This document shows positions 1,404-19,999 of a DNA stretch of 64,000 nt, piece after piece; position 1 is the stretch's first letter; the number at the start of each line of letters is the position of its first letter. The DNA lies in NCBI GenBank assembly GCA_964505155.1, contig CAZDGL010000001.1, positions 71,058 through 135,057 of the forward strand, read 5' to 3'. Both the position numbers and the translations under genes were made by a program. A model generated the notes under the pieces. The model saw only the letters and a program-made list of their open reading frames with translations, was not told the DNA's origin and searched no databases. The DNA is from an uncultured Candidatus Saccharibacteria bacterium. Its GTDB lineage: Bacteria; Patescibacteriota; Minisyncoccia; Phycocordibacterales; UBA9973.

Positions 1404-2129
1404 TTACTTCTTTGCAAATAGCATTGCTTCTGTCTTTGGTCCTAGAACACCATCTGGAACCAAACCATTTTCACCTTGAAAATCCTTCAGAGCATTGATT
1501 GTGGCACGACCGATGACTCCGTCCTCTTCCAATCCATACCCGAAATCATTAAGCGCACGCTGGACATCGAGTACCGAATATTCGGTAAGATTGGATCCGG
1601 GCTTAGAGTCAACTGGTTTGTTAGCAAGATTGAAAATCTTCTTAGCGAGTGCTAGATACTTGATTCTATCTTCCAGACCATTGTAGCCACCATTGATTTT
1701 CTTTGTGATGGCACGGACATCGTCCTGATCTGCAAGCTTATTCAGTTTTCTGGAATTCCAGTACCAGATAGCTCCGAGGAAAGCCCACGGAAAATTAGCT
1801 ACCTCTTCGCGACCTTTGACCGATAGAAAATTAGGAGGATTTAGACCCTCGTCCTTGCACCATTGGTAAAATTCTTTGTAGTTATCTTCCCAAGTGACTT
1901 GAACCAATCCGCGACCATACCATGGAGCGTATCGCTGCTTGGATCCACCGTATTCCTTGGTGGTCTTGAAGCCATCGGACTCATGACAAAGCTGCGCAAG
2001 GAAGTGAGCCTTGCGCAGATCTGTGTTGATGTCAAATTTGTCCATGTAATCGACAGAGTCTAGAATACCGTCGATAATCCAGTCTTGCTCTCGATTAGAT
2101 AGACTTTTGAGTTGAGTTTTGGTTACCAT
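1404..2129 (-). CDS. endolysin: glycoside hydrolase family 19 (chitinase-like lysozyme) catalytic domain + C-terminal peptidoglycan-binding domain
   Basis: RKAHFLAQLCHESDGF...YGGS...WYGRGLVQVTW motif typical of GH19 lysozymes; C-terminus DFGYGLEEDGVIGRATINALKDFQGENGLVPDGVLGPKT matches PG_binding_1 repeat; start overlaps upstream stop (ATGA). Confidence 0.75.
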   Translation of the reverse strand: MVTKTQLKSLSNREQDWIIDGILDSVDYMDKFDINTDLRKAHFLAQLCHESDGFKTTKEYGGSKQRYAPWYGRGLVQVTWEDNYKEFYQWCKDEGLNPPNFLSVKGREEVANFPWAFLGAIWYWNSRKLNKLADQDDVRAITKKINGGYNGLEDRIKYLALAKKIFNLANKPVDSKPGSNLTEYSVLDVQRALNDFGYGLEEDGVIGRATINALKDFQGENGLVPDGVLGPKTEAMLFAKK

Positions 2130-2492: not shown

Positions 2493-2717
2493 TTATTTTT
2501 CCTTTGTTAGTGGGATATACTCTTCATCGTTGAATGTACCTGAAGATATTTGATAGTACTCTGCGTATGTTCCGTCAAATAGCTCATTTGATTCTTCGGC
2601 AATCCATGACTTGTCTAGTAACTCTTGGATCTGATGTGTGGTTGCAATTTGAATAGAAGATTCACCACCAAACAATCGTTTGAAGAAATTAATAATGGAC
2701 GTGAACATAATTTTCAT
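2493..2717 (-). CDS. hypothetical protein
   Basis: 74-aa ORF in operon. Confidence 0.25.
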   Translation of the reverse strand: MKIMFTSIINFFKRLFGGESSIQIATTHQIQELLDKSWIAEESNELFDGTYAEYYQISSGTFNDEEYIPLTKEK

Positions 2718-3058
2718 TACCTTGTGACTTGTGGAGTTACGATAATAATACCTTCCTGTACTCTCATAGTTAGGTTACCCGGAAAGCTGATCGCTTCAAC
2801 ATCATAAACATATTTTCCTTCTTTCAGATTAGAGGAAATATTTGATGAGAGTGAAATCTGGATTCGTCCATTGGATCCGTCTGCCACGGTACATACTAGG
2901 TTTGCAGAGGCATTCTCAGAATAATAGGATCGACGCAGTTGTCCAGAAACTGAATATCCAGCTACGTTGACGTTTTGGTTAGTCAACGAATCTTTGATGG
3001 TGATATTACTAGTGTAGTATGCACCCTGTTTGATATAAAGCTCTTTGTACAGGCACAT
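2717..3058 (-). CDS. hypothetical protein (beta-rich, possible fibre tip/adhesin accessory)
   Basis: 113-aa ORF, start overlaps upstream stop. Confidence 0.3.
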   Translation of the reverse strand: MCLYKELYIKQGAYYTSNITIKDSLTNQNVNVAGYSVSGQLRRSYYSENASANLVCTVADGSNGRIQISLSSNISSNLKEGKYVYDVEAISFPGNLTMRVQEGIIIVTPQVTR

Positions 3059-3591
3059 TAAGTCCCTCTGACTGGCCAGTAGCTATTATCTGAATAATTA
3101 GCAGGAATTGGATCGAGATCTTTCAATACTCTAGCTGCAAATACGTGTCTGGATTCCCATTGGGCCGCATACTGAGCAAGTGCAAACATTTGATGAGCAT
3201 CTAGCTGTGCTGTTTCATTGTTCTGCAAAATCCACGAGAATGCATCGACTCCACCGTGCCAATATAAGTACCCTTCTGGAGCACCTGCAGCTACGGCAAA
3301 TCCTGCTAGAGTCCCTGCACCTGAAATTCTTATTTTAGATGTGGGATCAAAATCATACGGGTTCCCACCGTACGTAAATCCCAATAGAAGCCGTCTGTCG
3401 CGTTCTGTGTTGATTTGTGCGATAGTTCCTGCGGGATCTGCCGGATCGGTATAAACCCCGTTATCATAGGCTCCACCGATTTTCCAGTGAGGCTCAGCCG
3501 CAATGACGGACGAACCGGGTACGACCCATCCGTCTTCAGCAGAAATGATATTCGTGATAATGTTGTTTGTTATGACAGCTTGTCGCTTCAT
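3058..3591 (-). CDS. putative tail-fibre associated protein
   Basis: 177-aa ORF directly downstream of glycine-rich fibre gene, overlapping stop/start. Confidence 0.3.
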   Translation of the reverse strand: MKRQAVITNNIITNIISAEDGWVVPGSSVIAAEPHWKIGGAYDNGVYTDPADPAGTIAQINTERDRRLLLGFTYGGNPYDFDPTSKIRISGAGTLAGFAVAAGAPEGYLYWHGGVDAFSWILQNNETAQLDAHQMFALAQYAAQWESRHVFAARVLKDLDPIPANYSDNSYWPVRGT

Positions 3592-5241
3592 TTATGATCT
3601 TCCGATTGTAGAAATTACCACGACGTATCCATTGCCACCTAGACCACCATATCCTGTGTGAATTGAGCCTGCAGTGTTGAGAACCGCGTTGGAGAACCAT
3701 CCGGTAGGTGAAGCACCTGCGGCACCACCAGAACCTAGAATACCGTTTCCACCGTTGGCTCCAACGGATCGATACTGAGGATATCCAGACTGGCCACCAA
3801 ATGAAATGAAGATATTGTGGAAGCCATATGCTGTTCCGTCTACACCATTGACTAGATTACCACCATTTTTGGTAGTTTCTGGTGCCGTTATAGAATCCCC
3901 TGATTCCACTGCTCCATAATAAAGAGTCTGATGGCTACCGTCATAGGAGTTATTACCTGCAGTGAAGTCATCACAATAGGATGCACCTCCACCGAATACG
4001 ATAACTGCAGCATCGACGTTTGAAAGTGTAGAAGTCAACGTTGTAACACCAGAAGTAGTCGCTCCACCAGAACCACCAAAGAATGTTCTTTCGGTTCTGG
4101 TTCGATTGATACCAGAACGAGGAATTGTTCCACCACCCGGAGGACCAGAAACTGTTCCACCACCAGAACCACCTAGAGCAGTCAAATAGGCTCCAAATGT
4201 AGTAGAACCACCAGCACTACCTGTTCCACCGGAATATGATGGAGTAGAGTTGATATATCCTACACCACCTTGTGCTTGAGAAACGATGACATATCCATTT
4301 CCACCAGCACCACCTGTACCGATAGTTACTGTGACGTTTGATGCCAATTCTGAGTTGTTAGCATAAAGAATTGCAACTTGGCCACCTCCACCACCAACAC
4401 CAGAAATCGTTTCGGCAGTCGGGGACATTCGACCTCCACCTCCACCTCCACCAGCACCAACAGCATAGATAATAGCTTCTTTGAAGTTAGCAGGCTTATT
4501 CCAAAATCCTGAGGAAAAGAAATATTCTACGACAGTAGTCGTTAGTGCATTTGAAAATTCGAGACGGTTGTTTTGAACAATGAGAGTCTGATTAGCTACT
4601 CCAAGAGGAAGTCTTTCCAGACGATTATTTGCAAATACCAGAATGTCTCCATTAGACATAGGTCCGACATTTGCTAGCTGATGAAGATTGGTATTGACAG
4701 TCTGCTTACCCGGTAGATCCGTGCTGACAATAGTGTTCTGAATAGCATGGACGGTCTTGATATGTAGATCCAGAACGTTTGCTAGTTGTGTAGATGCCAC
4801 GTTTCCTGAAGCATTATCTGCTAGATCGGTAACGGTTCTAACGGAAAGGAATAGAGTCTTGCCTAGTTCGGCAGAACCACCGATTGTGACGGTGCTATTA
4901 TTTGATTGAACTAGGAAATTGTTGGTGGTAAGGTTTGCAGATCTGATGTTGGATAGAAGTCCACCGTCACCTTTAACCAATCCTGATGCCACATTGAGTG
5001 CGACAACCTGACCATCGGATGCCCGAATGGTTGCGGACTTGTAGACTACAAGGTTGGACGTGACGTTGGCTTCAGCAACTCGTAGATTTCCGTTAGCGGT
5101 AACCGATCCATGCACCGCAACATTGCCGTTTGAGGAGAAACCCTTGGTCTGTTCTTCGTTTGTGACTTGAACAAGCTGGTTCACTCTCTGGACGAGAGTG
5201 AAATAGGTATCTAGACCCATATCCAGATTAGCGAGAGGCAT
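3592..5241 (-). CDS. glycine-rich tail fibre-like structural protein
   Basis: 549 aa with long poly-Gly/Gly-X tracts (GGGGGGGR..., GGTGSAGGSTTFG..GGSGGGTVSGPPGGG) typical of phage fibre shafts. Confidence 0.5.
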   Translation of the reverse strand: MPLANLDMGLDTYFTLVQRVNQLVQVTNEEQTKGFSSNGNVAVHGSVTANGNLRVAEANVTSNLVVYKSATIRASDGQVVALNVASGLVKGDGGLLSNIRSANLTTNNFLVQSNNSTVTIGGSAELGKTLFLSVRTVTDLADNASGNVASTQLANVLDLHIKTVHAIQNTIVSTDLPGKQTVNTNLHQLANVGPMSNGDILVFANNRLERLPLGVANQTLIVQNNRLEFSNALTTTVVEYFFSSGFWNKPANFKEAIIYAVGAGGGGGGGRMSPTAETISGVGGGGGQVAILYANNSELASNVTVTIGTGGAGGNGYVIVSQAQGGVGYINSTPSYSGGTGSAGGSTTFGAYLTALGGSGGGTVSGPPGGGTIPRSGINRTRTERTFFGGSGGATTSGVTTLTSTLSNVDAAVIVFGGGASYCDDFTAGNNSYDGSHQTLYYGAVESGDSITAPETTKNGGNLVNGVDGTAYGFHNIFISFGGQSGYPQYRSVGANGGNGILGSGGAAGASPTGWFSNAVLNTAGSIHTGYGGLGGNGYVVVISTIGRS

Positions 5242-5437
5242 TTACAAGGGTTCCTACAATATTGCGTAATTCTTGAAGTTCTGACTTTAGATTATTTATC
5301 TCTTCTTCTTGCGTCCGATTTTTATCAAGCATCCGCTTTTTTACCATATACTCTTCTGCCTTACCCTTGTCTTTAAGGATAAGTGCTCTAGAATGAGTAT
5401 CTCTTTCATATGAAATGTTTTCAGTCTGGACTTTCAT
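5228..5437 (-). CDS. small coiled-coil protein
   Basis: 69 aa, heptad-like KAEEYMVKKRMLDKNRTQEEEINNLKSELQELRNIV. Confidence 0.3.
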   Translation of the reverse strand: MKVQTENISYERDTHSRALILKDKGKAEEYMVKKRMLDKNRTQEEEINNLKSELQELRNIVGTLVNASR

Positions 5438-8400
5438 TAGTCTCCACCGGGTAGTGCAATAGCTCTGAAGTCACGTGCCTTCGGTAGAATTAGCGTGGAT
5501 TCGGAATAGAACACGACCTTGATTGCATATTCACGGAATGAATTGTAAGTAGTTCCACCAGCGGTATAGGATACCGAGTTGGAAGATAGAGAAGGACGAT
5601 ATTCGTATTCGATATAATCGATATCGGATGATGAATATCTATTTGATGGTGTTGCCTGCTCCATTGGGAACCATTCGCGGCTTTCGAATGTAGCAGGATC
5701 GTCTTCGTTCTTTACCTTGTAGTATACAAAGAAGTTGGTGCCTACTGGTTTGTTACCAGTAATATAGACTCGTAGGTCTCCACCATTGAATCCTTCGTTC
5801 AGGATTGCACGTTTGGTGATATATCTGGATCTAGCTGGACCACCTGAAGGATCGGTTTCAGACGCCACAATCAGATTTGCGGATGAGCCTCCACCACCAC
5901 TAAGCGTGACGTTTGCTCGCGTTGAATATCCTGAGCCACCAGTATTGACGACAATGGACGTTAGGTTAGATCCATCGGTTGCTCCGATATAGGCATTAGC
6001 GGATGAGCCTCCACCACCAGAAATAGTCACGGCAATGTTGTTTGCGTTTGAATATCCGGTTCCGTCGTCCACAAAGGTAATCAGCGTATTGGATAGCGGC
6101 AGATTATTGATTTCATTTGCCACGGTAATCAGATTGACTGACTTCGCGATAACCATAGGTGAAATATCAGGGTTCGGAGTAGATAGTGAAACCCGAACAT
6201 TAGCTGCAGCAATAACCTTTCGTTCTGACAATTCGTAGTCCTTATCAGCAACAATGGTTTCAAAGGATCCTAGAGCACCAGTAAGATTGGACGTGCTCTT
6301 CAAAGCGTAATTGATTCTGGTATTACCGATCAGCAAGTCCTGCTTCTGCAGATAGATCATATCAAAGTAGGTATTGGATACCTGTGGTGAGTTTTCAAAG
6401 TATGCTAGACCTTCGTTGGTAGTAAACTGGCAACGATTAAGGACGAACATCAAATCTTCGAACTGGAATGGTGTCCAGACGGAAGCATTCTGGGACTTGA
6501 ATAGTGAACCAGAATATGGTTGCTCGGAAATGATTCTATCAGTACCGATCTGCTTCTTGCTCATTTCACCAATATAGACTTCGTATTCTGGAGCATCGGA
6601 TAGCACAGTCAGAGCATATTCCTTTCCAGCTTCCAGATAAACTGGTGCTTGGAATGGGAAGTTGGTCTTGGTTGCCGTATTACCTGCAGAAGGATTGTCA
6701 GACAGATTGATCTGGTCTGGGAACTTCTTACTGATAGAATATGGAAGGATTTCGGATGAAGATGGGAATCCGTTCACAGTCGTTCTAATTTCTACCCAAA
6801 CAGGAAGGTTATCATCCTTTCTCTTGAAGAATAGGTCGACGGATGATAGGAAGATACCACTTGGGAATACGCTTGCATCCACATAGAATGTCTGGGATAG
6901 TGGATCGAGTCCAGCAAACCGAACCTGTTCTCTAATCGTACGAGTTTGAACTACAGGCTTCTGTACCGCAAGAACGGACTCACGAACGTCCTGCTGAATT
7001 GCCAAAGCATTGTAGGTAGTAACCGCTTTGGTAGTAAAGCTATCGGCATCACTAGAAACGTCATCGATAATGGTGAATTCACGTTCACCTGTTCTAAACA
7101 TATCGCTGCTGTTGGAAGGTAGATGGAAGATACCACCTAGAGATCCTGAGCGATTGATCTTGTTTGGACCAATAGAGTAAATGGTGTTTGCTTGTGGGAT
7201 AGTAGTCAGAAGAGGGAATACCTCTGCACGACGAGTTACTGCATTGAATGAAGTAATATTCGTGGTCTGACCAGCACCCGGACCAATTGGGAAACAGATT
7301 GTATTAGCAAGATAGTAGTTTGCCGTGTTGGCAGCACCAACCGCTAGCACAACGCTATTTGCCATAGCGCTGACTACATTACCTGAATAGTGTTCGTAGC
7401 TGATAATCTTACCAGTTACACCTGATACCTGACCAGTTAGAGTCGTACCCGGAGTAAAGTATCCCTTTGTATTTGCTACATAAACCAAGCAATTACCATC
7501 GGAGTCAAATCCAGATAGAACTACCTGACCAGTATTGGATCCGAATGAAACCTTTTCATTCACACCTACCTGATCATCAAACCGATATAGAGTCTGTTCT
7601 ACCTTGAGGACGTTCGGACGTTCGATATACTTGGTAACGTTTGAGCCATCAAAGAAGAATTCTACCTGACGATATGGACGCATGGAATAAGCATTGAAGA
7701 AAACATCACGCTGACGAATCCATGGAACAATCGAGACATTGACTACGGATGAACCCAGAGATTGAGTTTCGGTCTGTAGAACCGTTCTGGTCTGCGTCTG
7801 GACATCAAATGAGGTTGAAGTCAATCCGTCACGGTTTGTTCCACCGTTTCTAGTAACGCTAGTTTCACGTCGAGTAGAAGTGGTTCTCCAGTTACCGAAA
7901 TCGGATCCGAATGCCTGAGATGCGGAATTGGAAGTCCAACCATCTAGCGCACCATTTTCATTGATGACAAGATCTGGTACTTCATTTGTATTTACCCACT
8001 GGTCAGACATAGGTGAAATGTCCAGATTTCCATTGAAGGTAGCTACGAGGAAATAGTTGACGGATTCTGCTTTGGACGCGGTATTCTGGGTAATGAATGG
8101 AATTTCATTGAAGTCCAAAGTAATGACTTCACCAGACTTGTAGATATTGGAGTCTGATGCTGAATACTCCATAACAAATGAACCCTGAGTGAAGAATGGA
8201 CGCAGGATCTTTTCGGTGCTATCGATGGAGCAACGATAGTCTCCGTTTCCGACATCACCAATTGAGTGACCGTCGAAATTGTCAGCAATGATACCGTACT
8301 TGGTTCTTTCCAGACCATTGACGTCACGAATTGATAGGGATTCTGCTGCCTTTTCCAAAGCATTCAAGGTATTATAATATTCTAGATTCTGAATACGCTT

Positions 8401-10032
8401 TTCGAGTCCACCAATATCACGCATGGTGAATCGCTTATTGTCCACATATTTGACTTGAATATTGGTCTTAGGATCGATAACATATGGATCCAGATAGAAT
8501 CGGTATAGCGGCATACCATCATCTGGGACGTTTGGTAGAGAAGGCAATCCTGAAGCTACACCCTTAATGTATCTGAAGGTTCTATCCTTCGTAGCAATAA
8601 GCATGTCACGACGTGGCATGTAGTATTCAAAGTTGACTGTGAATTCTTCATTAGGAGTAGGAATACGTCCACCATTCAGCGTATATGCTGGTGAAGTATT
8701 GGAAGCATTCTGTCTGGAAGGACGGAAATCCACCACGTCAGCTAGACGGAAGGATTCACCTGTTGAATCGATATAGGTTGGAACGTCTCCGTATCCAGCA
8801 GTCGTATTGATGTCAGGATATGAATCGACAGAGAAGAATCCGTAACCATCGGATGAGCCTGCTCCATGTTCATAGTAATCAAAGCAGACGACCAGCGGAC
8901 CCTTAGGAGCCGTTACACCAGTTTTTAGAACAATTGCACCGTGATCATAGAAGGTGTCACGCTGTCCGGTATCCAGAAGATATCTGGAAGTAACATCGGT
9001 ATATCCAGAGAGTGCTGCACCACCAACGATTGCGGTACCGTTTAAATCATAGATTGCATTAATCTTCTTGACGTCTGCTACGAATAGTGAATCCTTACCG
9101 CTTGGAACTCGATTTGGATTGATAATTCTAACCTGACCATCCTTCAGATAGATTGCAGTATTGGTGGTTCCGGTTAGAATAGTAGCGTTTGCCGTTACCG
9201 TGACTGCATATGCAGTGTTCGGTACGATCTTGGTCTTGGACTTTGGATTGGTCTTGGAACCTGAATTGATTTCTACGGAAGCAATAACGTCTGCCACAAA
9301 GGTATTGGAGGTTCCGGCATCCAGAGTAGCGGTTGAACCTGCTACTGAGATAGAACGTCCGAGTGACGTTGCCATAGGTAGAATTGCACCGTTTTGCCAT
9401 GCAACGTTACCACCATTGTTGGTAATCATTACCATGTAGTTATCGACCTTGATTGAGTCGGATAGAGCACCAGTACCGATCAGCGCATCACCAGCATCCG
9501 CAGTGATAGACCCCACACCTGAAGTGAAGGTACGGTTAGTGAATACCTTTCGGTACTGGTAATTGTTGACACCAGTGTTCGCTTTTACATAATCCTGTGG
9601 GAACGGGAATATTAGTGAAGAATATGCGGCTTCGGCCATAACGGTATCACCATTTGGTGTACCATCGGACTTGGATTCATTGGCAATATTCAGGTTAGCG
9701 GTTGAGGCACCAAAGCCACCACGAACCATGGACTCCAGATCATTGATACCAAAATCAATGGAAATGACAGAAGTTGTATCTGGGATCGTATCCCAATCTG
9801 GTGCCACGGTTGCTACCTTGGTTGATCCGTTCCATGCTGTGAAATTTCGGATCTGTCCTGAACCTGTTCCGGTTACGACTCGACCAGTCGCATTCTGATA
9901 AGCATTTGAGTTAGCAGAGAAACGTGGATAGTTGAGCGTTTGCAGAGTTTGCATTCGCGGAAATTGAAACGAACTGAGTATCAGCAATGTAGACGCGAGC
10001 CAGATAGGACGCAGCATTGGTGATTGAACCAT
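5437..10032 (-). CDS. giant (about 1500 aa) baseplate/tail-fibre structural protein
   Basis: 1531-aa ORF downstream of gp8; contains the same Gly-rich module (TGGSGYSTRANVTLSGGGGSSANL) seen in gp6/gp7/gp8; real start probably internal Met (MQTLQTL, about 9954) because of overlap with upstream ORF. Confidence 0.55.
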   Translation of the reverse strand: MVQSPMLRPIWLASTLLILSSFQFPRMQTLQTLNYPRFSANSNAYQNATGRVVTGTGSGQIRNFTAWNGSTKVATVAPDWDTIPDTTSVISIDFGINDLESMVRGGFGASTANLNIANESKSDGTPNGDTVMAEAAYSSLIFPFPQDYVKANTGVNNYQYRKVFTNRTFTSGVGSITADAGDALIGTGALSDSIKVDNYMVMITNNGGNVAWQNGAILPMATSLGRSISVAGSTATLDAGTSNTFVADVIASVEINSGSKTNPKSKTKIVPNTAYAVTVTANATILTGTTNTAIYLKDGQVRIINPNRVPSGKDSLFVADVKKINAIYDLNGTAIVGGAALSGYTDVTSRYLLDTGQRDTFYDHGAIVLKTGVTAPKGPLVVCFDYYEHGAGSSDGYGFFSVDSYPDINTTAGYGDVPTYIDSTGESFRLADVVDFRPSRQNASNTSPAYTLNGGRIPTPNEEFTVNFEYYMPRRDMLIATKDRTFRYIKGVASGLPSLPNVPDDGMPLYRFYLDPYVIDPKTNIQVKYVDNKRFTMRDIGGLEKRIQNLEYYNTLNALEKAAESLSIRDVNGLERTKYGIIADNFDGHSIGDVGNGDYRCSIDSTEKILRPFFTQGSFVMEYSASDSNIYKSGEVITLDFNEIPFITQNTASKAESVNYFLVATFNGNLDISPMSDQWVNTNEVPDLVINENGALDGWTSNSASQAFGSDFGNWRTTSTRRETSVTRNGGTNRDGLTSTSFDVQTQTRTVLQTETQSLGSSVVNVSIVPWIRQRDVFFNAYSMRPYRQVEFFFDGSNVTKYIERPNVLKVEQTLYRFDDQVGVNEKVSFGSNTGQVVLSGFDSDGNCLVYVANTKGYFTPGTTLTGQVSGVTGKIISYEHYSGNVVSAMANSVVLAVGAANTANYYLANTICFPIGPGAGQTTNITSFNAVTRRAEVFPLLTTIPQANTIYSIGPNKINRSGSLGGIFHLPSNSSDMFRTGEREFTIIDDVSSDADSFTTKAVTTYNALAIQQDVRESVLAVQKPVVQTRTIREQVRFAGLDPLSQTFYVDASVFPSGIFLSSVDLFFKRKDDNLPVWVEIRTTVNGFPSSSEILPYSISKKFPDQINLSDNPSAGNTATKTNFPFQAPVYLEAGKEYALTVLSDAPEYEVYIGEMSKKQIGTDRIISEQPYSGSLFKSQNASVWTPFQFEDLMFVLNRCQFTTNEGLAYFENSPQVSNTYFDMIYLQKQDLLIGNTRINYALKSTSNLTGALGSFETIVADKDYELSERKVIAAANVRVSLSTPNPDISPMVIAKSVNLITVANEINNLPLSNTLITFVDDGTGYSNANNIAVTISGGGGSSANAYIGATDGSNLTSIVVNTGGSGYSTRANVTLSGGGGSSANLIVASETDPSGGPARSRYITKRAILNEGFNGGDLRVYITGNKPVGTNFFVYYKVKNEDDPATFESREWFPMEQATPSNRYSSSDIDYIEYEYRPSLSSNSVSYTAGGTTYNSFREYAIKVVFYSESTLILPKARDFRAIALPGGD

Positions 10033-11287
10033 AGGAATCGTGCATGATTGAACGAAGTCTGGTGGTACCGATCTTCGTGGTATCGTATGCAGCTTGTGAA
10101 GCCTGTGAAACGAACTGATATGGAATGCAGTGTAGATCCATCAGCGGCACAGTTGAAAAATCAAATGAACCCTTCAGGTTTGATGAAAGCAGGTAGTTAC
10201 CGATTGCGGTTGAAATATCATAAAGAGTGATGTTAGCAGTTTCACGTGGCTTTTCTACCAGAAGTCTGGTAGCAACTACGGGTTCGTATTCATAACCGAA
10301 GACATATGCCTTACCTGAATCGACTGTGATTTGGAGATTAGCGGAATTGTCTGGATCGTCTTCAATATTAACCTTGAAAGGTCTGACGGTATAGTTACCG
10401 GATTCATCATAGGTACGACGTGCTAGAGTCTTTTCAAGTTCTGAATAATATGGAATGTTCAGAACCTTCTGCTGGACTCCACCTTCAATTCGAGTGATTT
10501 CCACAAAGGATTCGTCGTCCACGGAGTCATATGATCTCTTTGAGAATACGAGATCAATCTTGTATCGATCCGCACCCGGAGCCGTGAAATTTGAAGATCC
10601 CTGTGCTGGATCCAGAAGTGAGGTATCATCGGAAGCATCCACAATACTTTCATCAATATCAAAACCGATCTTGGCATTTGCCGTGGTCTTATACTTTTCA
10701 AGAATGATGGTCTGACGTGCGTTTCGTACAAAGAATCCCTTCACGAAATAGATACCATCGGTCACTTCAGCTAGGATACCGTTTGCGGAAATATTAGCTG
10801 AAGCCACATTAGCATAATAGGCTTCATTCTCGACTCGCAAGGAATCTGATGCCACGAATTCGTCTGAAGTAAGATACTTCAGCATCAGCGTAGGTGGTTC
10901 GGAATTTATGGAATTTTCACCAGATAGGACAATAGCCTTGACGTTTGTTAGGCCATCAGCACGGACGACACGCTTTCCTACAAAATTTGAAACGTCGATG
11001 TCGGTGCCGATATATTGAGAAGCTAGATTTAGAGCCTTGGAAGTCTGATAGGAAATGAATCCACCTTCAACCTGAGATCCATTCTTGAAAATATGACGAC
11101 CTAGACGTTCTGTCTGGATTTGTGCCGCTGACTGCATACCAACAAGTTCTCTTCCCTGAACCGGGAAAGATGGCTTGAACATGTAACGGTAGTATCCCTT
11201 GGATTCGTCTGTATCATCATAATATGGAGCGAACCGTGAGAAATCCGGTATCACGCTCGTATTAACAATATTGGAGGTATTTGCCAT
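9911..11287 (-). CDS. virion structural protein (baseplate/fibre region)
   Basis: 458-aa ORF between gp8 and the giant protein; 3' end overlaps 1531-aa ORF in another frame. Confidence 0.45.
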   Translation of the reverse strand: MANTSNIVNTSVIPDFSRFAPYYDDTDESKGYYRYMFKPSFPVQGRELVGMQSAAQIQTERLGRHIFKNGSQVEGGFISYQTSKALNLASQYIGTDIDVSNFVGKRVVRADGLTNVKAIVLSGENSINSEPPTLMLKYLTSDEFVASDSLRVENEAYYANVASANISANGILAEVTDGIYFVKGFFVRNARQTIILEKYKTTANAKIGFDIDESIVDASDDTSLLDPAQGSSNFTAPGADRYKIDLVFSKRSYDSVDDESFVEITRIEGGVQQKVLNIPYYSELEKTLARRTYDESGNYTVRPFKVNIEDDPDNSANLQITVDSGKAYVFGYEYEPVVATRLLVEKPRETANITLYDISTAIGNYLLSSNLKGSFDFSTVPLMDLHCIPYQFVSQASQAAYDTTKIGTTRLRSIMHDSYGSITNAASYLARVYIADTQFVSISANANSANAQLSTFLC

Positions 11288-11294
11288 TTCTATC

Positions 11295-12599
11295 CTAGAA
11301 ATTGATTACAATTCGGTAATCTTCTGTTTGATTAACATTTCTGGTAACTGCTTCGATATTATTTAGGTAGAGCAAACGTCCACTTCTTAGATTTACATCA
11401 GGAGATTTGACGTCTGATACAAATCGTCCTGCAGACGAATTGGCACCAAAAATGGTATCGGAGATAATAGATCCGATGGTATTAGTTACCTTCAGGATGG
11501 AATTAGCTGAATTCCAATCCACAAGCATTCCGGTAAACGTTGCCGTATCCAGAGAAGCTCCCTGATATACGTATTCACCTTCCTGATAGCTGGTTCCAGA
11601 TCCAGTTACCGTGATATCCGTAGTCAGGGAAATTGCGGTATTGGTGATAAAATCGTCCGTTCCCTGTTCGGTCGGATCCTGAACAATTCCTAGCTGTCGA
11701 TATGTTCCCTTAACCGGAAGCTTTCCAGACTCGTCTGCATTCAATCGAATATTGAGCATCACGTCTGTGGACAAGAATTCATAGACCGGATCCGATCCAT
11801 GTCCATTCTTTGGACCTAATAGCGGCTTCAGAAGAGCATCAGATCCTCCACCACCAGAAATGGTTGCCACGGCATTCGTATATCCTGTGCCATATGATGT
11901 CATGACAATAGCAGATACCGTATTGGTTGAGGTATTCAGCGAAGCCGTAGCGGTTGCACCTTCACCGTCTCCAGTAATCGTGACTATAACATTAGATGAA
12001 TTTGAATAATTCGATCCCGTATTGGCAATATGGATTGCTAGGATTGCTCCATCAGCAGCGGATTCCTGTACATCCCACTGCTGTGATCCATTGTCGACTG
12101 TCAGGGTTCTAACCGGAATATAGTTTTCAGATAGAAACTTGGTAATGTCTCCGACTCCTACGGTATACATATACTTCCAAATGTAACCATCAGCAGTCTG
12201 GGTAATAGTATTACCTAAAGACGTAGGTTTAGTAGTGGACATTGCTCCACGATTATTTGAGATACACTTATAGATGTTGAATTCATCGGTCATGACATAG
12301 AAATTCTTGATCTCTGAACCATAATCGAAGTATGGATATACGGTGTTTGCTACCCAATCGTATCGAGGGATCACATTGACTAAGTCTCCACCCAGAATTT
12401 TCTTTCCACCGACTACCGATTTCCAGAACAAAAATTCTGTTGCCAGAGACGTATTAGCTGTTTCTGGACTAGCTTCATTGGACCACGCTGTAGGTCGACC
12501 ATAGATTAGATAAAGATTATTCTCATCATCCTCGGACAACGATTCAATAAACTGTGCAGTATTATAGACTCTGAACTGGTCTTTGATTAGACTAGGCAT
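11295..12599 (-). CDS. baseplate wedge subunit gp8-like
   Basis: N-terminal and C-terminal blocks align by eye with T4 gp8 (GYIWKYMYTVG vs GYVWEYLFEIP; C-terminus ...NNIEAVTRNVNQTEDYRIVINF vs ...NRPPIIMAMDQTEEINILFTF); extra Gly-rich insert. Confidence 0.6.
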   Translation of the reverse strand: MPSLIKDQFRVYNTAQFIESLSEDDENNLYLIYGRPTAWSNEASPETANTSLATEFLFWKSVVGGKKILGGDLVNVIPRYDWVANTVYPYFDYGSEIKNFYVMTDEFNIYKCISNNRGAMSTTKPTSLGNTITQTADGYIWKYMYTVGVGDITKFLSENYIPVRTLTVDNGSQQWDVQESAADGAILAIHIANTGSNYSNSSNVIVTITGDGEGATATASLNTSTNTVSAIVMTSYGTGYTNAVATISGGGGSDALLKPLLGPKNGHGSDPVYEFLSTDVMLNIRLNADESGKLPVKGTYRQLGIVQDPTEQGTDDFITNTAISLTTDITVTGSGTSYQEGEYVYQGASLDTATFTGMLVDWNSANSILKVTNTIGSIISDTIFGANSSAGRFVSDVKSPDVNLRSGRLLYLNNIEAVTRNVNQTEDYRIVINF

Positions 12600-14697
12600 C
12601 GATAAATCCTATATTGACATTGCCTGAGTAGGTTCTATTATTTGGTAGTGACGAAACATTACCGTAAATGTTAAAGAATCCATTGGATACGTTTGGAACA
12701 ATTACGTTTGCAGTAAATTCAATAATCACGTTTGTGATATTTGAAGCCAGATTTGATGGTGCTGAACCAGAATATACAAGAAGCGAATTGGCATCGTTTG
12801 CCGCATACTGACCGGGATAGAATAGAATCATTCCCTCGTATGAGGTATTTACCTGATGTGTATTCTGTTCGAACTTTTTCTTATATTCGGCAAATGCAAT
12901 CAAACCTGCAGGATGTGATACTTCCTTGAGGGTTTTTCTATACTTATCAAATGTCTGATCGGACTTGACAACATATGAAAAGTTTTGGTAGTAATCCTGA
13001 TCCTGTAGTCTCATTGTGGACGAAGGCATACCGTCGTCGTTTAGGAATCTACCGGGATAATCAAATACACCAGTTACGATAGTCGCAACTGCTTGTGCCG
13101 TTCCATCACCTGAGGCTCGCAGATTGATCGTAGGAGCAGTCTGATAACCGGATCCACGGTTCAAGATTTCAATAGTCAAAATCGAACCGACCGAGGTGTT
13201 GCTTGATGTAAAGATTTCACCGTCACCTAGAATAGCGGTAACCGTGATATTTGCACCAGATCCACCAGCAGACGTAATCGAAACGGATGGAAGCGCATTC
13301 TGTCGATATCCGTAGCCACCAGCGATATATCCTGACTCAGGTACGAAATTGACTCGCGTAATTCCACCGCTTCCATCAATCTGTGTGACGTTTGCCTTAC
13401 CCTTGAATCCATATTCACCCGGTTGATTGACGAAAAGAATCTGATCCCCTACAGCATATCCTGTACCCGGTGAATTGATTGCCATTCGTCCTAAAATACC
13501 CAGACGCTTGATAGTCGTATTGGCCACCGCGTCCATATCTGGAGTCGATAGGTAGTTGTTGCCTCCCACATGAACTGTTATAACAGAAATAGGTCCGGTG
13601 TTGGCATATTGATAAAGATGTAGCGTATCACCCATAACCGAATTCGCATTAGGTGATGACACTATCAGGGTGCTTAGATTTGAATAAACCGTATTCCCCA
13701 GAATCGTATTGGCTTCGGCCAACAGCGATGTCGTCCAGATATTATAAGAGTTAGGATGATATAGCTCGGTTTTGTCTACCTGCGTGATTTCGGCATTGGC
13801 ACCTGAACCAGATCCGGTAATCAAGATGAAGTTGTTTACCTGAAATCCTGCACCACCATTTAGAACACCGATAGCTTCCAGACCACCTGTGGATACGGTC
13901 GATACGATTGCGATAGCACCGCAACCTGAATTGGATTCAAATACCAGAGAGTCACCAACCTCGTAACCAGCACCCGGATTGACAATGGTAATCGAATTAA
14001 TGATACCTGAATAGACGTTACCAGAAATGGATTTGGTCTCACCGTTTTCCGTGAAATATGAGATAACCATTTCACCGTTATCGAATGCACCCTCAATATT
14101 TGTGAGTGCTAATTCGTTGATTTCAATTCCGGTTTCAAAGTATCTGGTGACACGTTCTACCACTGCGGATGCATTAGAGGTATTGCCGCGCAGCAACGTA
14201 TTCCGAAAGTTCTCAAATCCGTTCAGGTTAGTGTTGGATACACCTTCGACCTTGATATCCGTAATACGAAGTGCCTTCTGGACATACCACTTACCATCAG
14301 ACACTTTTAGAATATTGTTCTTTGGATACGTGATTTCGGTATTGGACGATCCGGTTATAATATTGATCAAGAATCGTACGGCTTTTTCGGTACCGTTTGA
14401 ATGGTAGAAGTCCTGAATATTCTTGAGCAGAAGGTCTTTGTCCACAATTACACTAGACGGAATAGACTTCATGAACTGCTCATAGAGTTTTTGCTTTAGT
14501 TCCGAATGAGTATCGTCCACGTCATAATAGCGAATAAGGTTGGACATACGTTCCAAAACCTTACCATCTTCTAGAGTTTCAGAATATTGTTCCAGATACC
14601 GATAGTAGTATTCCATGAATTTAACGAACTGAGGATGGTCAGTCCGAATAAATCCTGATAGCTGATCGGTTACGAATATAGAGGTTTTGTTATTCAT
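12592..14697 (-). CDS. baseplate wedge initiator gp7-like
   Basis: 701 aa between gp6 and gp8 homologues (T4 order 6-7-8); C-terminal HPAG block reminiscent of T4 gp7 HPVG region; carries Gly-rich modules. Confidence 0.45.
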   Translation of the reverse strand: MNNKTSIFVTDQLSGFIRTDHPQFVKFMEYYYRYLEQYSETLEDGKVLERMSNLIRYYDVDDTHSELKQKLYEQFMKSIPSSVIVDKDLLLKNIQDFYHSNGTEKAVRFLINIITGSSNTEITYPKNNILKVSDGKWYVQKALRITDIKVEGVSNTNLNGFENFRNTLLRGNTSNASAVVERVTRYFETGIEINELALTNIEGAFDNGEMVISYFTENGETKSISGNVYSGIINSITIVNPGAGYEVGDSLVFESNSGCGAIAIVSTVSTGGLEAIGVLNGGAGFQVNNFILITGSGSGANAEITQVDKTELYHPNSYNIWTTSLLAEANTILGNTVYSNLSTLIVSSPNANSVMGDTLHLYQYANTGPISVITVHVGGNNYLSTPDMDAVANTTIKRLGILGRMAINSPGTGYAVGDQILFVNQPGEYGFKGKANVTQIDGSGGITRVNFVPESGYIAGGYGYRQNALPSVSITSAGGSGANITVTAILGDGEIFTSSNTSVGSILTIEILNRGSGYQTAPTINLRASGDGTAQAVATIVTGVFDYPGRFLNDDGMPSSTMRLQDQDYYQNFSYVVKSDQTFDKYRKTLKEVSHPAGLIAFAEYKKKFEQNTHQVNTSYEGMILFYPGQYAANDANSLLVYSGSAPSNLASNITNVIIEFTANVIVPNVSNGFFNIYGNVSSLPNNRTYSGNVNIGFIDA

Positions 14698-16769
14698 TAG
14701 GTAATCGGAACCATTTCAATTACGATTGAACTAGAATCGTTCTCATCAATATCCAGAATATTGTTTCTGGATGGTAGAATGATATCAGTTTCTGGTTGAA
14801 TATTCAGAGTCATGACATCATCATTGTAGTTTGAATTCTCGGATACTGACAGGAAGCTCAGGTTGTTTAGAACAATTTCACCTGTCTGATAATCAATAGT
14901 GCCTGCATTCTCGTTGATATAGACCTTTTCACCGTTCGAACGGATATAATAGATCCGAAGATTTCCAGTTCGGGCTTGCAATACCGGAGTAGCTGCACCA
15001 CCAAATCCTCCACCACCAGATATTGTGATAGAAGCTCGCGTATAATTTGTACCTCGATCCACGATTGTGATGGTTGAGATCTTACCATTCACGATTGAAG
15101 CCTGAGCAGTTGCACCCATACCATCACCTAAAATGGTAACGGTCGGTGCTTCCGTGTAGGAATAACCGGGATTGGTGATGACTACCTCGTCCACACCCGT
15201 AAAGGATTCAGGTACTTCTTCAATATAGCAGGTTCGCGTCACATTGAATGAGTCCTTCATCGTGAATGTAGGATTAGAATAGAGCTTCTCATTGATGCCA
15301 CCACGCAATAGAGGCACATTGAAATCAATCTCGTAATTCTTAGAAATATCGAACGTTGGTTCAAATCGCTTCTGAAGATAGATATCCAGCGAGCAGGATA
15401 CGATAGCACGATTGGTATCCTCAATCTTTCTAACCAATCTGGACTTATAGAATGAAGCATCGAATGTGCGGAGATTATCGTCCTTAAACTCCGCAATGGC
15501 ATTTCTGATCTGAGTCTTGATTGAATTTTCGTCAATCGTAGACTTTCGAGGATCGTAGCTGACGCGAGCATTGACAATGAGATAGGTATAATCAGGATCC
15601 ACGATTTCTGGTGTGATACCCAATACGGACTTCTTCTGAATGATTTCCGTCACGATACGGATCTTCTCTAGATTTGAGATCTCAAAATTACGTACAGGCT
15701 TCATGGAAATAAAGACCTTGCCATAGATTGGAGGGACATTATCCTCTCCTCCCCAAACCGAGACCGCTTCAATATTTGGATAGTCTCTGAGAATGATTGC
15801 CTTGTAGTCCTCATCAATTACCGCACGATTCTGGACGGTGTAATGAATAGGTGCTCGCGCACGAATTTCCTCGATAGTTTCTCTATCGGATCCACCATAT
15901 GCAGCAAATACAGGATTGATGATTACGTTGTCATTGTATCCATTGATGGAGTCCAGAAGAATGAATGAGTTGGCATCGTTGCCATACTTACCTTCGGTAT
16001 CCAGATAGGTGACAATAACGATATTGCCATTGGACGGACGCTTACCGATCACATTATCCCCGAAATAGAGGATATAGTTGCCATTGGATAGTGAGCTTTC
16101 TTCGAGGAAGAATACCTGCGTATTGCCTCGGATTTCGGTAATATCCTCGTTGACTACGTAAACCTGCGTATCGGTATTTGAGGATGATTCTTGTACAGCT
16201 ACGCTAACCGTAGATATATCAACGTTAGCAGAAGGGATAACATACCGAGGTTTTGCACCGGATACCACATAAGCATTTCGGATAACTTCACCTTGCTTGA
16301 CAACAATATTTGAGAAATAGAAAGTTCCATTAGCATCCTTTGTCGCGACGTTTGTGTTGAGAGTCACGAAATTATAATTCAAACCATCTATTGACTCGGA
16401 CTGGAAAGGAGTGTAGCGTTCCAGAGTTAAGGTTTGTGCTGAGTTGTCCTCAGAACCTTCAGGAGTGACTCGGATATTGAGTTGGGAGGTAGCACCGATC
16501 TGGGATTGCGGTACGTAGTTTAGAGACTTTGCATGTGAGATAATGGAAGAACGTTTCTGTGCGGTATCCAGAAACATTTCGTTACCAATCATGTTTGCAT
16601 AAAATGCCTGATAGTAGGTGTTGTAGGCCAGAATATCCAGAAGGCTCGATAGACCGGATGCCTCGAAGTTATAATCTGTAAACTCGGATTGATTCTGGAA
16701 GAAGTTCTTCAGGTTATTTCGGATAGAGTCGAAATCTAGCTCTGTGATTCTTAGGGTATTATTTGCCAT
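14697..16769 (-). CDS. baseplate wedge subunit gp6
   Basis: N-terminus MANNTLRITELDFDSIRNNLKNFFQNQSEFTDYNFEASGLSSLLDILAYNTYYQ parallels T4 gp6 N-terminus (..NGQNEFLDYDFEGSRLNVLCDLLAYNTLY); 690 aa vs 660 in T4. Confidence 0.7.
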   Translation of the reverse strand: MANNTLRITELDFDSIRNNLKNFFQNQSEFTDYNFEASGLSSLLDILAYNTYYQAFYANMIGNEMFLDTAQKRSSIISHAKSLNYVPQSQIGATSQLNIRVTPEGSEDNSAQTLTLERYTPFQSESIDGLNYNFVTLNTNVATKDANGTFYFSNIVVKQGEVIRNAYVVSGAKPRYVIPSANVDISTVSVAVQESSSNTDTQVYVVNEDITEIRGNTQVFFLEESSLSNGNYILYFGDNVIGKRPSNGNIVIVTYLDTEGKYGNDANSFILLDSINGYNDNVIINPVFAAYGGSDRETIEEIRARAPIHYTVQNRAVIDEDYKAIILRDYPNIEAVSVWGGEDNVPPIYGKVFISMKPVRNFEISNLEKIRIVTEIIQKKSVLGITPEIVDPDYTYLIVNARVSYDPRKSTIDENSIKTQIRNAIAEFKDDNLRTFDASFYKSRLVRKIEDTNRAIVSCSLDIYLQKRFEPTFDISKNYEIDFNVPLLRGGINEKLYSNPTFTMKDSFNVTRTCYIEEVPESFTGVDEVVITNPGYSYTEAPTVTILGDGMGATAQASIVNGKISTITIVDRGTNYTRASITISGGGGFGGAATPVLQARTGNLRIYYIRSNGEKVYINENAGTIDYQTGEIVLNNLSFLSVSENSNYNDDVMTLNIQPETDIILPSRNNILDIDENDSSSIVIEMVPIT

Positions 16770-17548
16770 TAAACTTCTAATCTCTTTTTATGAGAAAATC
16801 CTATATTTCTTTTATGTTCTTCGGTAAGACGTTTAAAAGCACGTTTTGATGGTCTACCTAATTTCCAACCTTCTGGAACTTCTTCAGGAGAAAACATTCT
16901 CATATCTTTTCCATTATTATAAAGTTTTCGTCCTAGATTTGTATAAATGTTTCCATTTGAACGTTTCCATGTTTTGCCTTTAGATGTGTGAATATCAGAC
17001 CAACCCGGAAGTCGACCTATATACCATCCTTCTAATAACCATTTTTCTACATCTTCATGAAATACGTTCATCGTTTTATTCAATTCAATGTTAGAAATGT
17101 AAGTTCGTTTTTTCTTGTCTTCAGAAAGCAGTTTCTTCTGTTCGTCAGAAATAGTTTTACCTTTATTTGCTTTTCCGATGTTAGTTTTCCATTCTGGTGA
17201 TAGACTTCGACCAGTCTGAGTCTTTGATATTTTTTGTCCAACTGTTAATTTATAATCTGGATCACTCCACCACAACCCAATAGTTTGAAATTTTAAATTA
17301 TAATATCTAACTTTTTTCAGTTTTGCTTTATCTAACCATTTTTGTTCTTCATATAACATATCTTTTTTATCAGAATAAATGTATTTTAATATTCGACGTT
17401 TAAAATCATCAGGACGACGTCTATATGCTTTTCTCATTCTAGTTGAAGAACATACATATCCATCGTTTTCAGTTCCCCAATGGGATCCGATATAATACAT
17501 TTTACGTTTACGGTCATACCAGATATAAACAAATCCATATTTTTCCAT
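16769..17548 (-). CDS. GIY-YIG homing endonuclease (seg-like) inserted between gp25 and gp6
   Basis: GFVYIWYDRKRKMYYIGS GIY-YIG motif; repeated NUMOD3-like KTQTGRSLSPEWKTNIGKANKGKTISDEQ; AT-rich relative to flanks. Confidence 0.8.
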   Translation of the reverse strand: MEKYGFVYIWYDRKRKMYYIGSHWGTENDGYVCSSTRMRKAYRRRPDDFKRRILKYIYSDKKDMLYEEQKWLDKAKLKKVRYYNLKFQTIGLWWSDPDYKLTVGQKISKTQTGRSLSPEWKTNIGKANKGKTISDEQKKLLSEDKKKRTYISNIELNKTMNVFHEDVEKWLLEGWYIGRLPGWSDIHTSKGKTWKRSNGNIYTNLGRKLYNNGKDMRMFSPEEVPEGWKLGRPSKRAFKRLTEEHKRNIGFSHKKRLEV

Positions 17549-17587: not shown

Positions 17588-18016
17588 TCACCTTATACGT
17601 TCTAAGAAAATCTCAACCCGGATTGGTTCGTTGATGTTTTCTACTTGGATTGTGATGGTCATGGTGACACCATTTTTAGATGGTTCACCACGTCCACGAA
17701 TTTCTAGGATAGATGCTCGCGGTTCAAAATTCTTGATTGCAAGTGATGCACGATCAATCATAAGTTTAATCGTCTGTTCGTTCATGGTTTCAAACAGGAG
17801 TCCACGGACACCGGATCCATAATATGGTTTGAATGGTCGTTCATAATAATTGGTAAGAACGACATTTCGGATAGCTCGTCTGACCGCTTCGGCACCAACG
17901 AGTTTAGTGACATCACCCGTCACAGGATGTGCCATGAAGTTCAGATCCAAGTCTCTGTATTTTGGTGAATTTCTTGTGATTAATTCCATTCGATTATTTA
18001 GGTGAGCGCTTGACAA
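17588..18016 (-). CDS. baseplate wedge subunit gp25 (GPW/gp25 family)
   Basis: 142 aa; ERPFKPYYGSGVRGLLFE matches the RPF.P.FG core of gp25/GPW proteins; first gene of the minus-strand wedge operon. Confidence 0.75.
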   Translation of the reverse strand: MSSAHLNNRMELITRNSPKYRDLDLNFMAHPVTGDVTKLVGAEAVRRAIRNVVLTNYYERPFKPYYGSGVRGLLFETMNEQTIKLMIDRASLAIKNFEPRASILEIRGRGEPSKNGVTMTITIQVENINEPIRVEIFLERIR

Positions 18017-19643: not shown

Positions 19644-19999
19644 CTTTTCTTGATTCTGCTACTAGGTCTATTCGACCCATTTCACCCGATGATGTGGTAG
19701 AGACGAAGAAGACCGTTGTCTTTCCACCTCAGGTAATCGAAGCATGGAACTATCTGATTGCCAAGCACTATCTGGATGGTCGTGCTTCTATTATGCAGGA
19801 CGAAGTCGTCAAGACCCTAATCAAGTATCTGGGATTGGACGAATCAGATCCAGCGTCCAGACGAGTCTGCTACGACAACAAGTATCTGGATATCGAGGAT
19901 ATCTATCGTGCCGAAGGTTGGACGGTCGAATACGATAAGCCAGCTTTCAACGAGACTTATGAACCATCATTCATATTTCGAAAAGGAAAGAGACGTTAG
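19640..19999 (+). CDS. hypothetical protein
   Basis: 119-aa ORF, ATGA overlap. Confidence 0.35.
   Translation: MTFLDSATRSIRPISPDDVVETKKTVVFPPQVIEAWNYLIAKHYLDGRASIMQDEVVKTLIKYLGLDESDPASRRVCYDNKYLDIEDIYRAEGWTVEYDKPAFNETYEPSFIFRKGKRR

Follow-up and report, generated by a model that had tools for sequence, protein, structure and literature searches.

Why does one glycine-rich repeat recur in four neighbouring baseplate proteins of a phage, and what kind of domain do its copies form? The question is raised by a stretch of 64,000 nucleotides (nt) of contig CAZDGL010000001.1 (positions 71,058 to 135,057; GenBank assembly GCA_964505155.1, deposited as an uncultured Candidatus Saccharibacteria bacterium), referred to in its entirety as the window, which comes from a T4-like marine myovirus. 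A preliminary description of the window had reported a module shared by gp6, a gp7-like protein, gp8 and a protein of 1531 amino acids (aa). We find that the recurrence is real, that the module is a conserved, independently folding all-beta domain that has been copied between structural proteins, and that it belongs to a very large family, comprising phage tail proteins and long arrays in cellular genomes, which Pfam and NCBIfam do not detect. We regard it as fairly probable that the copies are homologous accessory beta-barrel domains serving as surface-exposed adhesion or docking modules.

At the nucleotide level the whole region matched none of 50,697 phage records, and this phage therefore has no close cultured relative among them. 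Judged by gp6 (28-38% identity), its nearest cultured relatives are the Kyanoviridae S-PM2 (a Synechococcus phage), HTVC008M and Mosig (Pelagibacter phages) and Melnitz (a Methylophilales phage); two relatives from its own clade, L004 and L005, are available as contigs of 164-168 kb. Eleven clear units of about 40 aa each, located by eye and with regular expressions, and one degenerate unit were found in the window, all of them in genes on the minus strand. The repeat unit (about 37-41 aa) runs from a hydrophobic strand through a tight n-x-G-x-G-Y turn, a P-x-V-x-I strand and a Gly-rich loop to a G-A-x-A-x-A strand, and units stand in tandem: two in the gp6-like protein, five in the 701-aa protein (arranged 2 + 3, or 2 + 4 if the degenerate unit is counted), two in the gp8-like protein and two in the 1531-aa open reading frame (ORF) of VrlC. 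All of the strings that had been quoted from these proteins are present, except that the 24-letter string given twice for the 1531-aa protein occurs exactly once, the second copy being a variant of 25 letters. The host genes and their units, in window coordinates, are as follows (HMM, hidden Markov model; E, expectation value).

14697..16769, minus strand: gp6-like baseplate wedge protein, 690 aa, hosting one module pair (PF21379, phrog_219, T4 gp6)
14976..15197, minus strand: gp6-like pair, units aa 526-561 and 562-598 (pair aa 525-598); unit HMM E 1e-14 to 1e-15
12592..14697, minus strand: 701-aa wedge protein at the gp7 position, hosting five or six units (PF23786, phrog_17744)
13774..14007, minus strand: pair a+b of the 701-aa protein, aa 231-271 and 271-308; unit HMM, same pair in the L004 and L005 orthologues
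13501..13596, minus strand: tentative degenerate sixth unit of the 701-aa protein, aa 368-399 (half-unit match 368-387); 6.4-bit HMM match
13072..13500, minus strand: units c, d and e of the 701-aa protein, aa 400-443, 444-491 and 504-542; unit HMM, T4 gp18 and PF22639 matches
11295..12599, minus strand: gp8-like baseplate wedge protein, 434 aa, hosting one pair (PF09215, phrog_438, T4 gp8)
11817..12050, minus strand: gp8-like pair, aa 184-225 and 226-261; unit HMM, same alignment position in S-PM2, HTVC008M and Melnitz
5437..11287, minus strand: VrlC/DUF4815 giant baseplate protein, in two ORFs of 458 aa (9911-11287) and 1531 aa (5437-10032)
5860..6090, minus strand: pair in the C-terminal 1531-aa ORF of VrlC/DUF4815, aa 1315-1354 and 1355-1391; unit HMM

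Among the 430 six-frame ORFs of the window, matches to the unit HMM are confined to these four proteins. Models built with one protein left out at a time recover the missing protein in each case (gp6, E 3e-15; gp8, 7e-10; the 1531-aa protein, 1e-8; the 701-aa protein, 2e-5), and an HMM trained exclusively on unrelated database proteins scores 10 of the 11 units at 13-43 bits. As a control, the four proteins were shuffled 1000 times within blocks of 60 aa, which preserves local Gly-richness; the top score over all of these versions was 8.3 bits. With the unrelated-protein HMM, two units of the 701-aa protein, 400-443 and the degenerate 368-387, fall below the shuffle level; the former is backed separately by matches to T4 gp18 and PF22639. 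The degenerate unit scores 6.4 bits, a level attained by 7 of the 1000 shuffles, and both the L004 and the L005 orthologue have a detected unit at the corresponding position; tentatively, it would pair with unit c.

At the DNA level, similarity among the copies is limited to the core of the Gly loop, CCTCCACCACCA (plus strand), at 68-86% over 28 nt, which indicates that the copies are old (ancient paralogues). Near-identical Gly-loop DNA was seen in five units (5880-5907, 6000-6027, 11837-11864, 13254-13281 and 14999-15026). We considered and rejected recent DNA duplication or gene conversion, the shared cores being just 28-40 nt long and 60-86% identical. The 549-aa protein encoded nearby (3592-5241, minus strand) also contains poly-Gly runs (GAGGGGGGGR and GVGGGGGQ) and matches phrog_863 ('tail fiber assembly'); it was rejected as a fifth carrier of the module, having no match to the module HMM. 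phrog_863 also matches a gene beside a module-bearing protein in an Acidisoma prophage (L031).

We modelled the gp6 insert by itself with AlphaFold2 (AF2), using an alignment of pairs. The prediction for aa 515-612 is all-beta with six strands, at a pLDDT (predicted local distance difference test) of 90.3, and the full-length gp6 model, computed with 66 homologues, contains the same six strands (526-533, 543-548, 551-560, 563-574, 579-584 and 592-597) at pLDDT 82-93 with confident flanks. In these models a pair therefore appears to make up a single domain, with three strands from each unit. The predicted pair is a six-stranded barrel, as are residues 98-188 of the T4 tail sheath protein gp18; no alpha-helix packed on the barrel, as found in domain I of gp18, was predicted within the pair by AF2, and in the alignment the T4 helix region AKIIAKAKEVG occupies the place of the unit 2 G-x-G-Y turn.

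Domain I of gp18 was solved in T4 in 2009. It is a six-stranded barrel plus helix, inserted in domain II and protruding outward, which makes no sheath-sheath contacts. Its binding partners are the baseplate and the long tail fibres in their retracted state, and fibre retraction is prevented by the gp18 mutations G106S, S175F and A178V (PMC3004832). The second solved relative is D3* (residues 434-536) of the tailspike Dpo31, an insertion protruding from the beta-helix that its authors describe as Ig-like, with a speculated role in sugar binding (PMC13317679). Several comparisons point to these two domains. The Pfam model of gp18 domain I, PF22639 (Gp18_dom_I), matches residues 405-489 of the 701-aa protein at 26.1 bits (E 8.6e-6; gathering threshold 27) and, when compared with the five pairs, one of them (E 1.2e-5); residues 405-505 of the same protein align to T4 gp18 101-197 (3fo8_D 19-115) at a phmmer E of 0.009. 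Among solved structures, a profile of the five window pairs scores best against residues 445-505 of Dpo31 (E 1.6e-5), followed by residues 97-154 of the T4-like sheath 9x3p (E 0.04), with T4 gp18 residues 97-167 also matched. A second profile of 36 pairs gives the same overall picture (Dpo31 residues 446-509, E 8.5e-5), and the similarity to D3* is thus significant over tandem units. Profile-profile alignment of the module with gp18 domain I by hhalign gave E 2.9e-4 and a probability of 40%. A Foldseek search of the Protein Data Bank (PDB) with the pair model returned nothing significant, its top template modelling (TM) score of 0.51 being to 3foa (gp18), and neither the T4 gp6, gp7 and gp8 chains nor any Ig-type Pfam family matched the module at E<=10. 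It had been proposed that the module lies at sites absent from the T4 orthologues; in gp6 and gp8 nothing of T4 can indeed be aligned there, but T4 does own the domain, in its sheath.

How the module came to be in four proteins can be read, in part, from its distribution among relatives. Alignments show it as an insertion in both gp6 and gp8. In gp8, the T4 protein aligns to residues 4-90, 119-149 and 399-434 only, with the module pair outside these segments, and a diverged pair occupies the identical alignment position in S-PM2, HTVC008M and Melnitz; because the position is common to these Kyanoviridae lineages, the gp8 pair predates their split. In gp6, the inserted segment of about 90 aa consists of the pair plus the flank upstream of it; S-PM2, HTVC008M and Melnitz lack this insertion, and the pair is present in all 120 of the closest database homologues (49-55% identical, about 690 aa) and in both L004 and L005. 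Mean column conservation over the 120 homologues is 0.68 in the pair versus 0.66 in the core. Judged from these alignments, the gp6 copy is a clade-specific insertion, shared within an uncultured clade. Just upstream (gp6 aa 471-525, 15198-15359), MAFFT places a short segment of the relatives (in S-PM2, DVIVQSSGFKVSEYPLFTVFL) on the first two module strands (DEVVITNPGYSYTEAPTVTIL); this segment in the insert-less gp6 relatives could be a vestige, a landing site or a chance alignment.

The VrlC and gp7-position copies are more variable. At the VrlC site of the window, HTVC008M and Melnitz have a different, longer segment, and S-PM2 p087 (VrlC) carries a pair at another position of the protein; within the clade, L004 has the pair at the equivalent place and none was detected in L005. 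The number of units detected in the protein at the gp7 position varies between phages, from two to seven. By pairwise scores the gp6 and VrlC pairs are nearest the gp8 pair, and a gp8-type database fragment (P0002) bridges the gp6 and gp8 pairs, which suggests gp8 as the likely source of the pair in gp6 and, perhaps, of that in VrlC. The comparative data thus bear out the claim that the domain was shuffled into baseplate genes; this is not peculiar to the present phage but is ordinary phage mosaicism, lineage-wide and family-wide.

We then assessed how far the family extends. A tblastn search with the gp6 pair matched 240 phage records, 237 of them cyanophages; the other three are Salmonella, Acinetobacter and Pseudoalteromonas phages, and the two of them that are among the matches listed fall in a tail-sheath gene and a tail-fibre gene (the tail-sheath gene of Salmonella phage PT1 is 52.6% identical to the gp6 pair). 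A structure search of BFVD gave 24 matches at E<1e-3, with TM scores of about 0.7; the proteins matched are wedge proteins, hub-lysozymes of the gp5 type, fibres both short and long, beta-helix spikes and an endosialidase, and a giant virus is represented as well. Cyanophage 'baseplate hub + tail lysozyme' proteins carry the module in S-CAM9, S-CAM3 and S-N03 (BFVD) and in region 790-916 of phrog_1922; the 1280-aa gp5-type hub and lysozyme protein of the window (19996-23838, minus strand; phrog_1259) is without it. A word-indexed protein search with the pair profile proved too insensitive (11 short fragments), and we used instead an exhaustive HMM search of 1.84 billion representative sequences, which matched 25,683 clusters at E<=1e-3; 11,172 of them remain when the limit is set at E<=1e-10, and 1,630 when it is set at E<=1e-30. 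The best-scoring sequences are giant proteins in which up to about 30 stretches match, the family consensus has a period of 37-41 aa, and Pfam and NCBIfam detected nothing on the long module arrays. Some array proteins have signal-peptide-like or pilin-like N-termini.

Genomes were also scanned with a degenerate DNA pattern of about 37 bits, for which we estimate about 8 chance matches; at least 120 stretches matched, several loci having 2-5 matches each, and among the matches listed the motif occurs in the genomes of many bacterial phyla. Both of the two loci that were inspected lie among phage structural genes. In a prophage of a Pseudomonas metagenome-assembled genome (L039, 3112-4413), the interval between the major head and tape-measure genes contains a 433-aa ORF in which the module is matched twice. 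In siphoviruses this slot usually holds decorated tail-tube or head-decoration proteins. In the literature on PF22639, gp18 domain I, cyanophage baseplate cryo-electron microscopy and VrlC we found no description of the module or its family; what the present analysis adds is the connection with gp18 domain I and Dpo31 D3*, the architecture of two units and the large undetected family.

What the domains do is a matter for weighing. If they are adhesion or docking modules, as we favour, they would project from the wedge periphery or the baseplate surface, away from the core assembly, and would act as extra contact points outside it; outward projection is proposed because the homologues in sheath and tailspike face outward and because the distribution is limited to host-facing tail parts. 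The earlier suggestion that the copies may form a repeated surface array on the baseplate is plausible. By analogy with what has been proposed for phage Ig-like domains, they may provide weak multivalent adhesion to host-surface polysaccharide, a role to which we give somewhat less than an even chance. A less likely role is docking, either of fibres, in the manner of gp18 domain I with the retracted T4 fibres, or of neighbouring proteins. With an offset of -1 applied to the HMMER residue numbers, G106, S175 and A178 all agree with the gp18 sequence, and G106S, one of the mutations that affect fibre retraction, would then lie in the conserved G-x-x-Y turn: from the alignment we infer that G106 is the first Gly of the PGSNY turn, aligned with the module G-x-G-Y turn, and S175 and A178 would lie in or just after the position of the second-unit Gly-rich loop, where the alignment is weak. 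A bolder extension, which we consider unlikely, is that gp18-domain-I-like barrels are a common device for parking or docking fibres, in which case the gp6, gp7-position, gp8 and VrlC copies would hold or organise baseplate fibres, the turn and Gly loop would form the contact surface, and the family would be a general docking and adhesion repeat of phages and cells.

Three other explanations of the recurrence compete with the adhesion or docking module. The domains might instead be structural reinforcement or spacers, making cement-like lateral contacts that stiffen or enlarge the wedge periphery without recognising anything outside; this is unlikely, if a little less so than the general fibre-parking device. 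It would fit a full gp6 model in which confident strands rather than floppy linkers flank the pair, an insert conserved to the same degree as the gp6 core, and a set of most conserved residues (Gly, Pro and Tyr) that is expected of fold-determining positions, and virion stabilisation has been listed as a possible role of extra sheath domains (PMC9230969). However, the homologous domain in T4 makes no sheath-sheath contacts, the module occurs also on tailspike sides, on fibres and in the 10-30-copy arrays of giant proteins, where lattice cementing is impossible, and its presence in VrlC varies between close lineages, which would be odd for a load-bearing element. We give still less credence to a canonical Ig-like decoration domain (of the Big_2, I-set or FN3 type), in spite of the Ig-like fold ascribed to D3* by the Dpo31 authors and of the similar context, that of accessory all-beta insertions in tail proteins: the lack of any Ig-type Pfam match even at E<=10 has been noted, and the predicted domain consists of two homologous three-strand units, not of a seven-strand Greek-key sandwich. 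The module, earlier labelled an 'Ig-like or decoration domain', has as modelled neither an Ig-family match nor Ig beta-sandwich topology and is not a canonical Ig domain. Least probable by far is that the similarity is a compositional artefact of Gly-rich low-complexity stretches in unrelated proteins. The GGGG runs in the motif and the Gly-richness of the neighbouring 549-aa protein (3592-5241) might be taken to favour it, but the shuffles of local composition reached 8.3 bits at most against 13-43 for true units, that same Gly-rich protein is unmatched by the module HMM, leave-one-out models still find each protein, AF2 folds the pair with a pLDDT of 90, and the strand pattern and the G-x-G-Y turn are kept across 36 diverse pairs. 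The shuffle, leave-one-out and other controls refute this explanation.

Several points nevertheless weigh against the adhesion or docking module or parts of it. The outward orientation is an analogy with sheath and tailspike, and binding by family members is itself a predicted role. Conservation at the Gly, Pro and Tyr positions could have purely structural reasons, in turns and core. As for the link to gp18 domain I, the PF22639 match is slightly below threshold and is made by one of five pairs, and the hhalign probability is 40%. The suggested direction of transfer, from gp8 to gp6, is based on pairwise scores.

The identity of the host proteins was judged from family matches. The gp6-like protein matches PF21379 (69.6 bits), PF21871 (27.1 bits) and phrog_219 (E 1.6e-157) and aligns over residues 13-470 to the T4 gp6 chain 5hx2_D (E 1.3e-41); by sequence comparison it has the N-terminal helical domain and the Baseplate_J core of the T4 gp6 family. 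The gp8-like protein matches PF09215 (Phage-Gp8; 52.9 bits, cutoff 25), phrog_438 (E 7e-102) and, in its N- and C-terminal parts, T4 gp8 1n7z_A (E 4.4e-7), and is likewise assigned to the T4 gp8 family from these alignments. The name 'gp7-like' is apt for the 701-aa protein as regards gene position and an N-terminal match to PF23786 (Baseplate_wedge; residues 5-69 only, 39.8 bits), but not as regards sequence similarity to T4 gp7: no match to the T4 gp7 chain in the PDB was found with phmmer at E<=1, and gp7 is absent from cyanomyophages and pelagimyophages according to PMC7029224.

The 1531-aa ORF, which had been taken for a giant fibre protein, appears instead to be the C-terminal piece of a VrlC/DUF4815 baseplate protein encoded here in two parts. 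PF16075 is divided over the two overlapping ORFs (model positions 60-242 on the 458-aa ORF, 128.7 bits; 354-569 on the 1531-aa ORF, 72.3 bits), and phrog_358 divides likewise (10-465 versus 581-1589). HTVC008M, Melnitz and L005 have a single VrlC gene of 1986-2127 aa, and that of L004 is divided elsewhere (1164 + 890 aa). The two ORFs of the window overlap in different frames, with the junction around 9911-10032, where inspection showed no homopolymer and no obvious slippery site; the split could be an assembly frameshift, a genuine split or recoding. VrlC and gp8 are core genes of cyanomyophages and pelagimyophages (PMC7029224).

On the minus strand the genes concerned run in the order gp25-like, homing endonuclease, gp6-like, 701-aa protein, gp8-like, split VrlC/DUF4815 and the 549-aa Gly-rich protein, beyond which lie a DUF4376 protein and a small fibre-assembly-like protein. 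The first of them is as follows.

17588-18016, minus strand: gp25-like gene, first in the baseplate gene order

A homing-endonuclease-like ORF of 259 aa (16769-17548, minus strand; phrog_314, E 1e-20, with a weak GIY-YIG match) separates gp25 from gp6. It looks like a recent mobile insertion, because gp25 directly adjoins gp6 in S-PM2, HTVC008M, Melnitz, L004 and L005. A 241-aa ORF (1404-2129, minus strand), whose C-terminus resembles peptidoglycan-binding repeats (...GVIGRATINALKDFQGENGLVPDGVLGPKT...), is probably an endolysin, as read by eye from its translation.

Marine T4-like phages, namely those of cyanobacteria and SAR11 together with their uncultured relatives, rank with the most abundant viruses, and we found no solved baseplate structure for them in the literature. 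One exchangeable domain in four wedge and periphery proteins offers a handle for future baseplate maps and for host-range engineering. With gp18 domain I as one member of a very large undetected repeat family, a model of the family would make it possible to annotate phage tail and cell-surface proteins now called 'hypothetical' in their tens of thousands, and the T4 fibre-retraction mutants yield a testable hypothesis on the functional face of the domain.

Four known systems can be set beside the locus. One is the baseplate module of cyanomyophages and pelagimyophages (gp25-gp6-gp7-position-gp8-VrlC), which has the same gene order and the same host proteins as the window and shares the gp8 pair; its closest cultured representatives differ in having no gp6 insertion and in a VrlC pair that is missing or placed elsewhere. 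The Ig-like domains of phages (Big_2, I-set and FN3 types, for example in Hoc, major tail and sheath proteins) behave as the module does: they are small all-beta additions to virion proteins that pass horizontally between phages, are not needed for core assembly and, according to a proposal quoted in PMC9230969, bind weakly to carbohydrate of the host surface. They have another fold and belong to other families, the module being built from two three-strand units.

The two solved relatives resemble the module itself. Domain I of T4 gp18 (residues 98-188; 3FO8, 3FOA; PF22639) is, like it, a small six-stranded beta insertion in a contractile-tail protein with two similar halves, and the sequence matches extend over unit 1 and into the beginning of unit 2, taking in the P-G-x-x-Y turn; its second half, however, no longer has the G-x-G-Y turn and contains an alpha-helix that has no counterpart in the module. 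T4 has a single copy of the domain, in the sheath, and none in gp6, gp7 or gp8, whereas the window encodes no sheath copy detectable with the unit HMM among its six-frame ORFs. D3* of Dpo31 (from the marine podovirus Carin-1; PDB 8CK1 and later entries) consists of two tandem units with the same G-x-G-Y turns and, like the module, is an insertion in a protein of a marine phage, in its case one that protrudes from the host domain; that host is a trimeric beta-helix podovirus tailspike, and the hosts here are myovirus wedge proteins.

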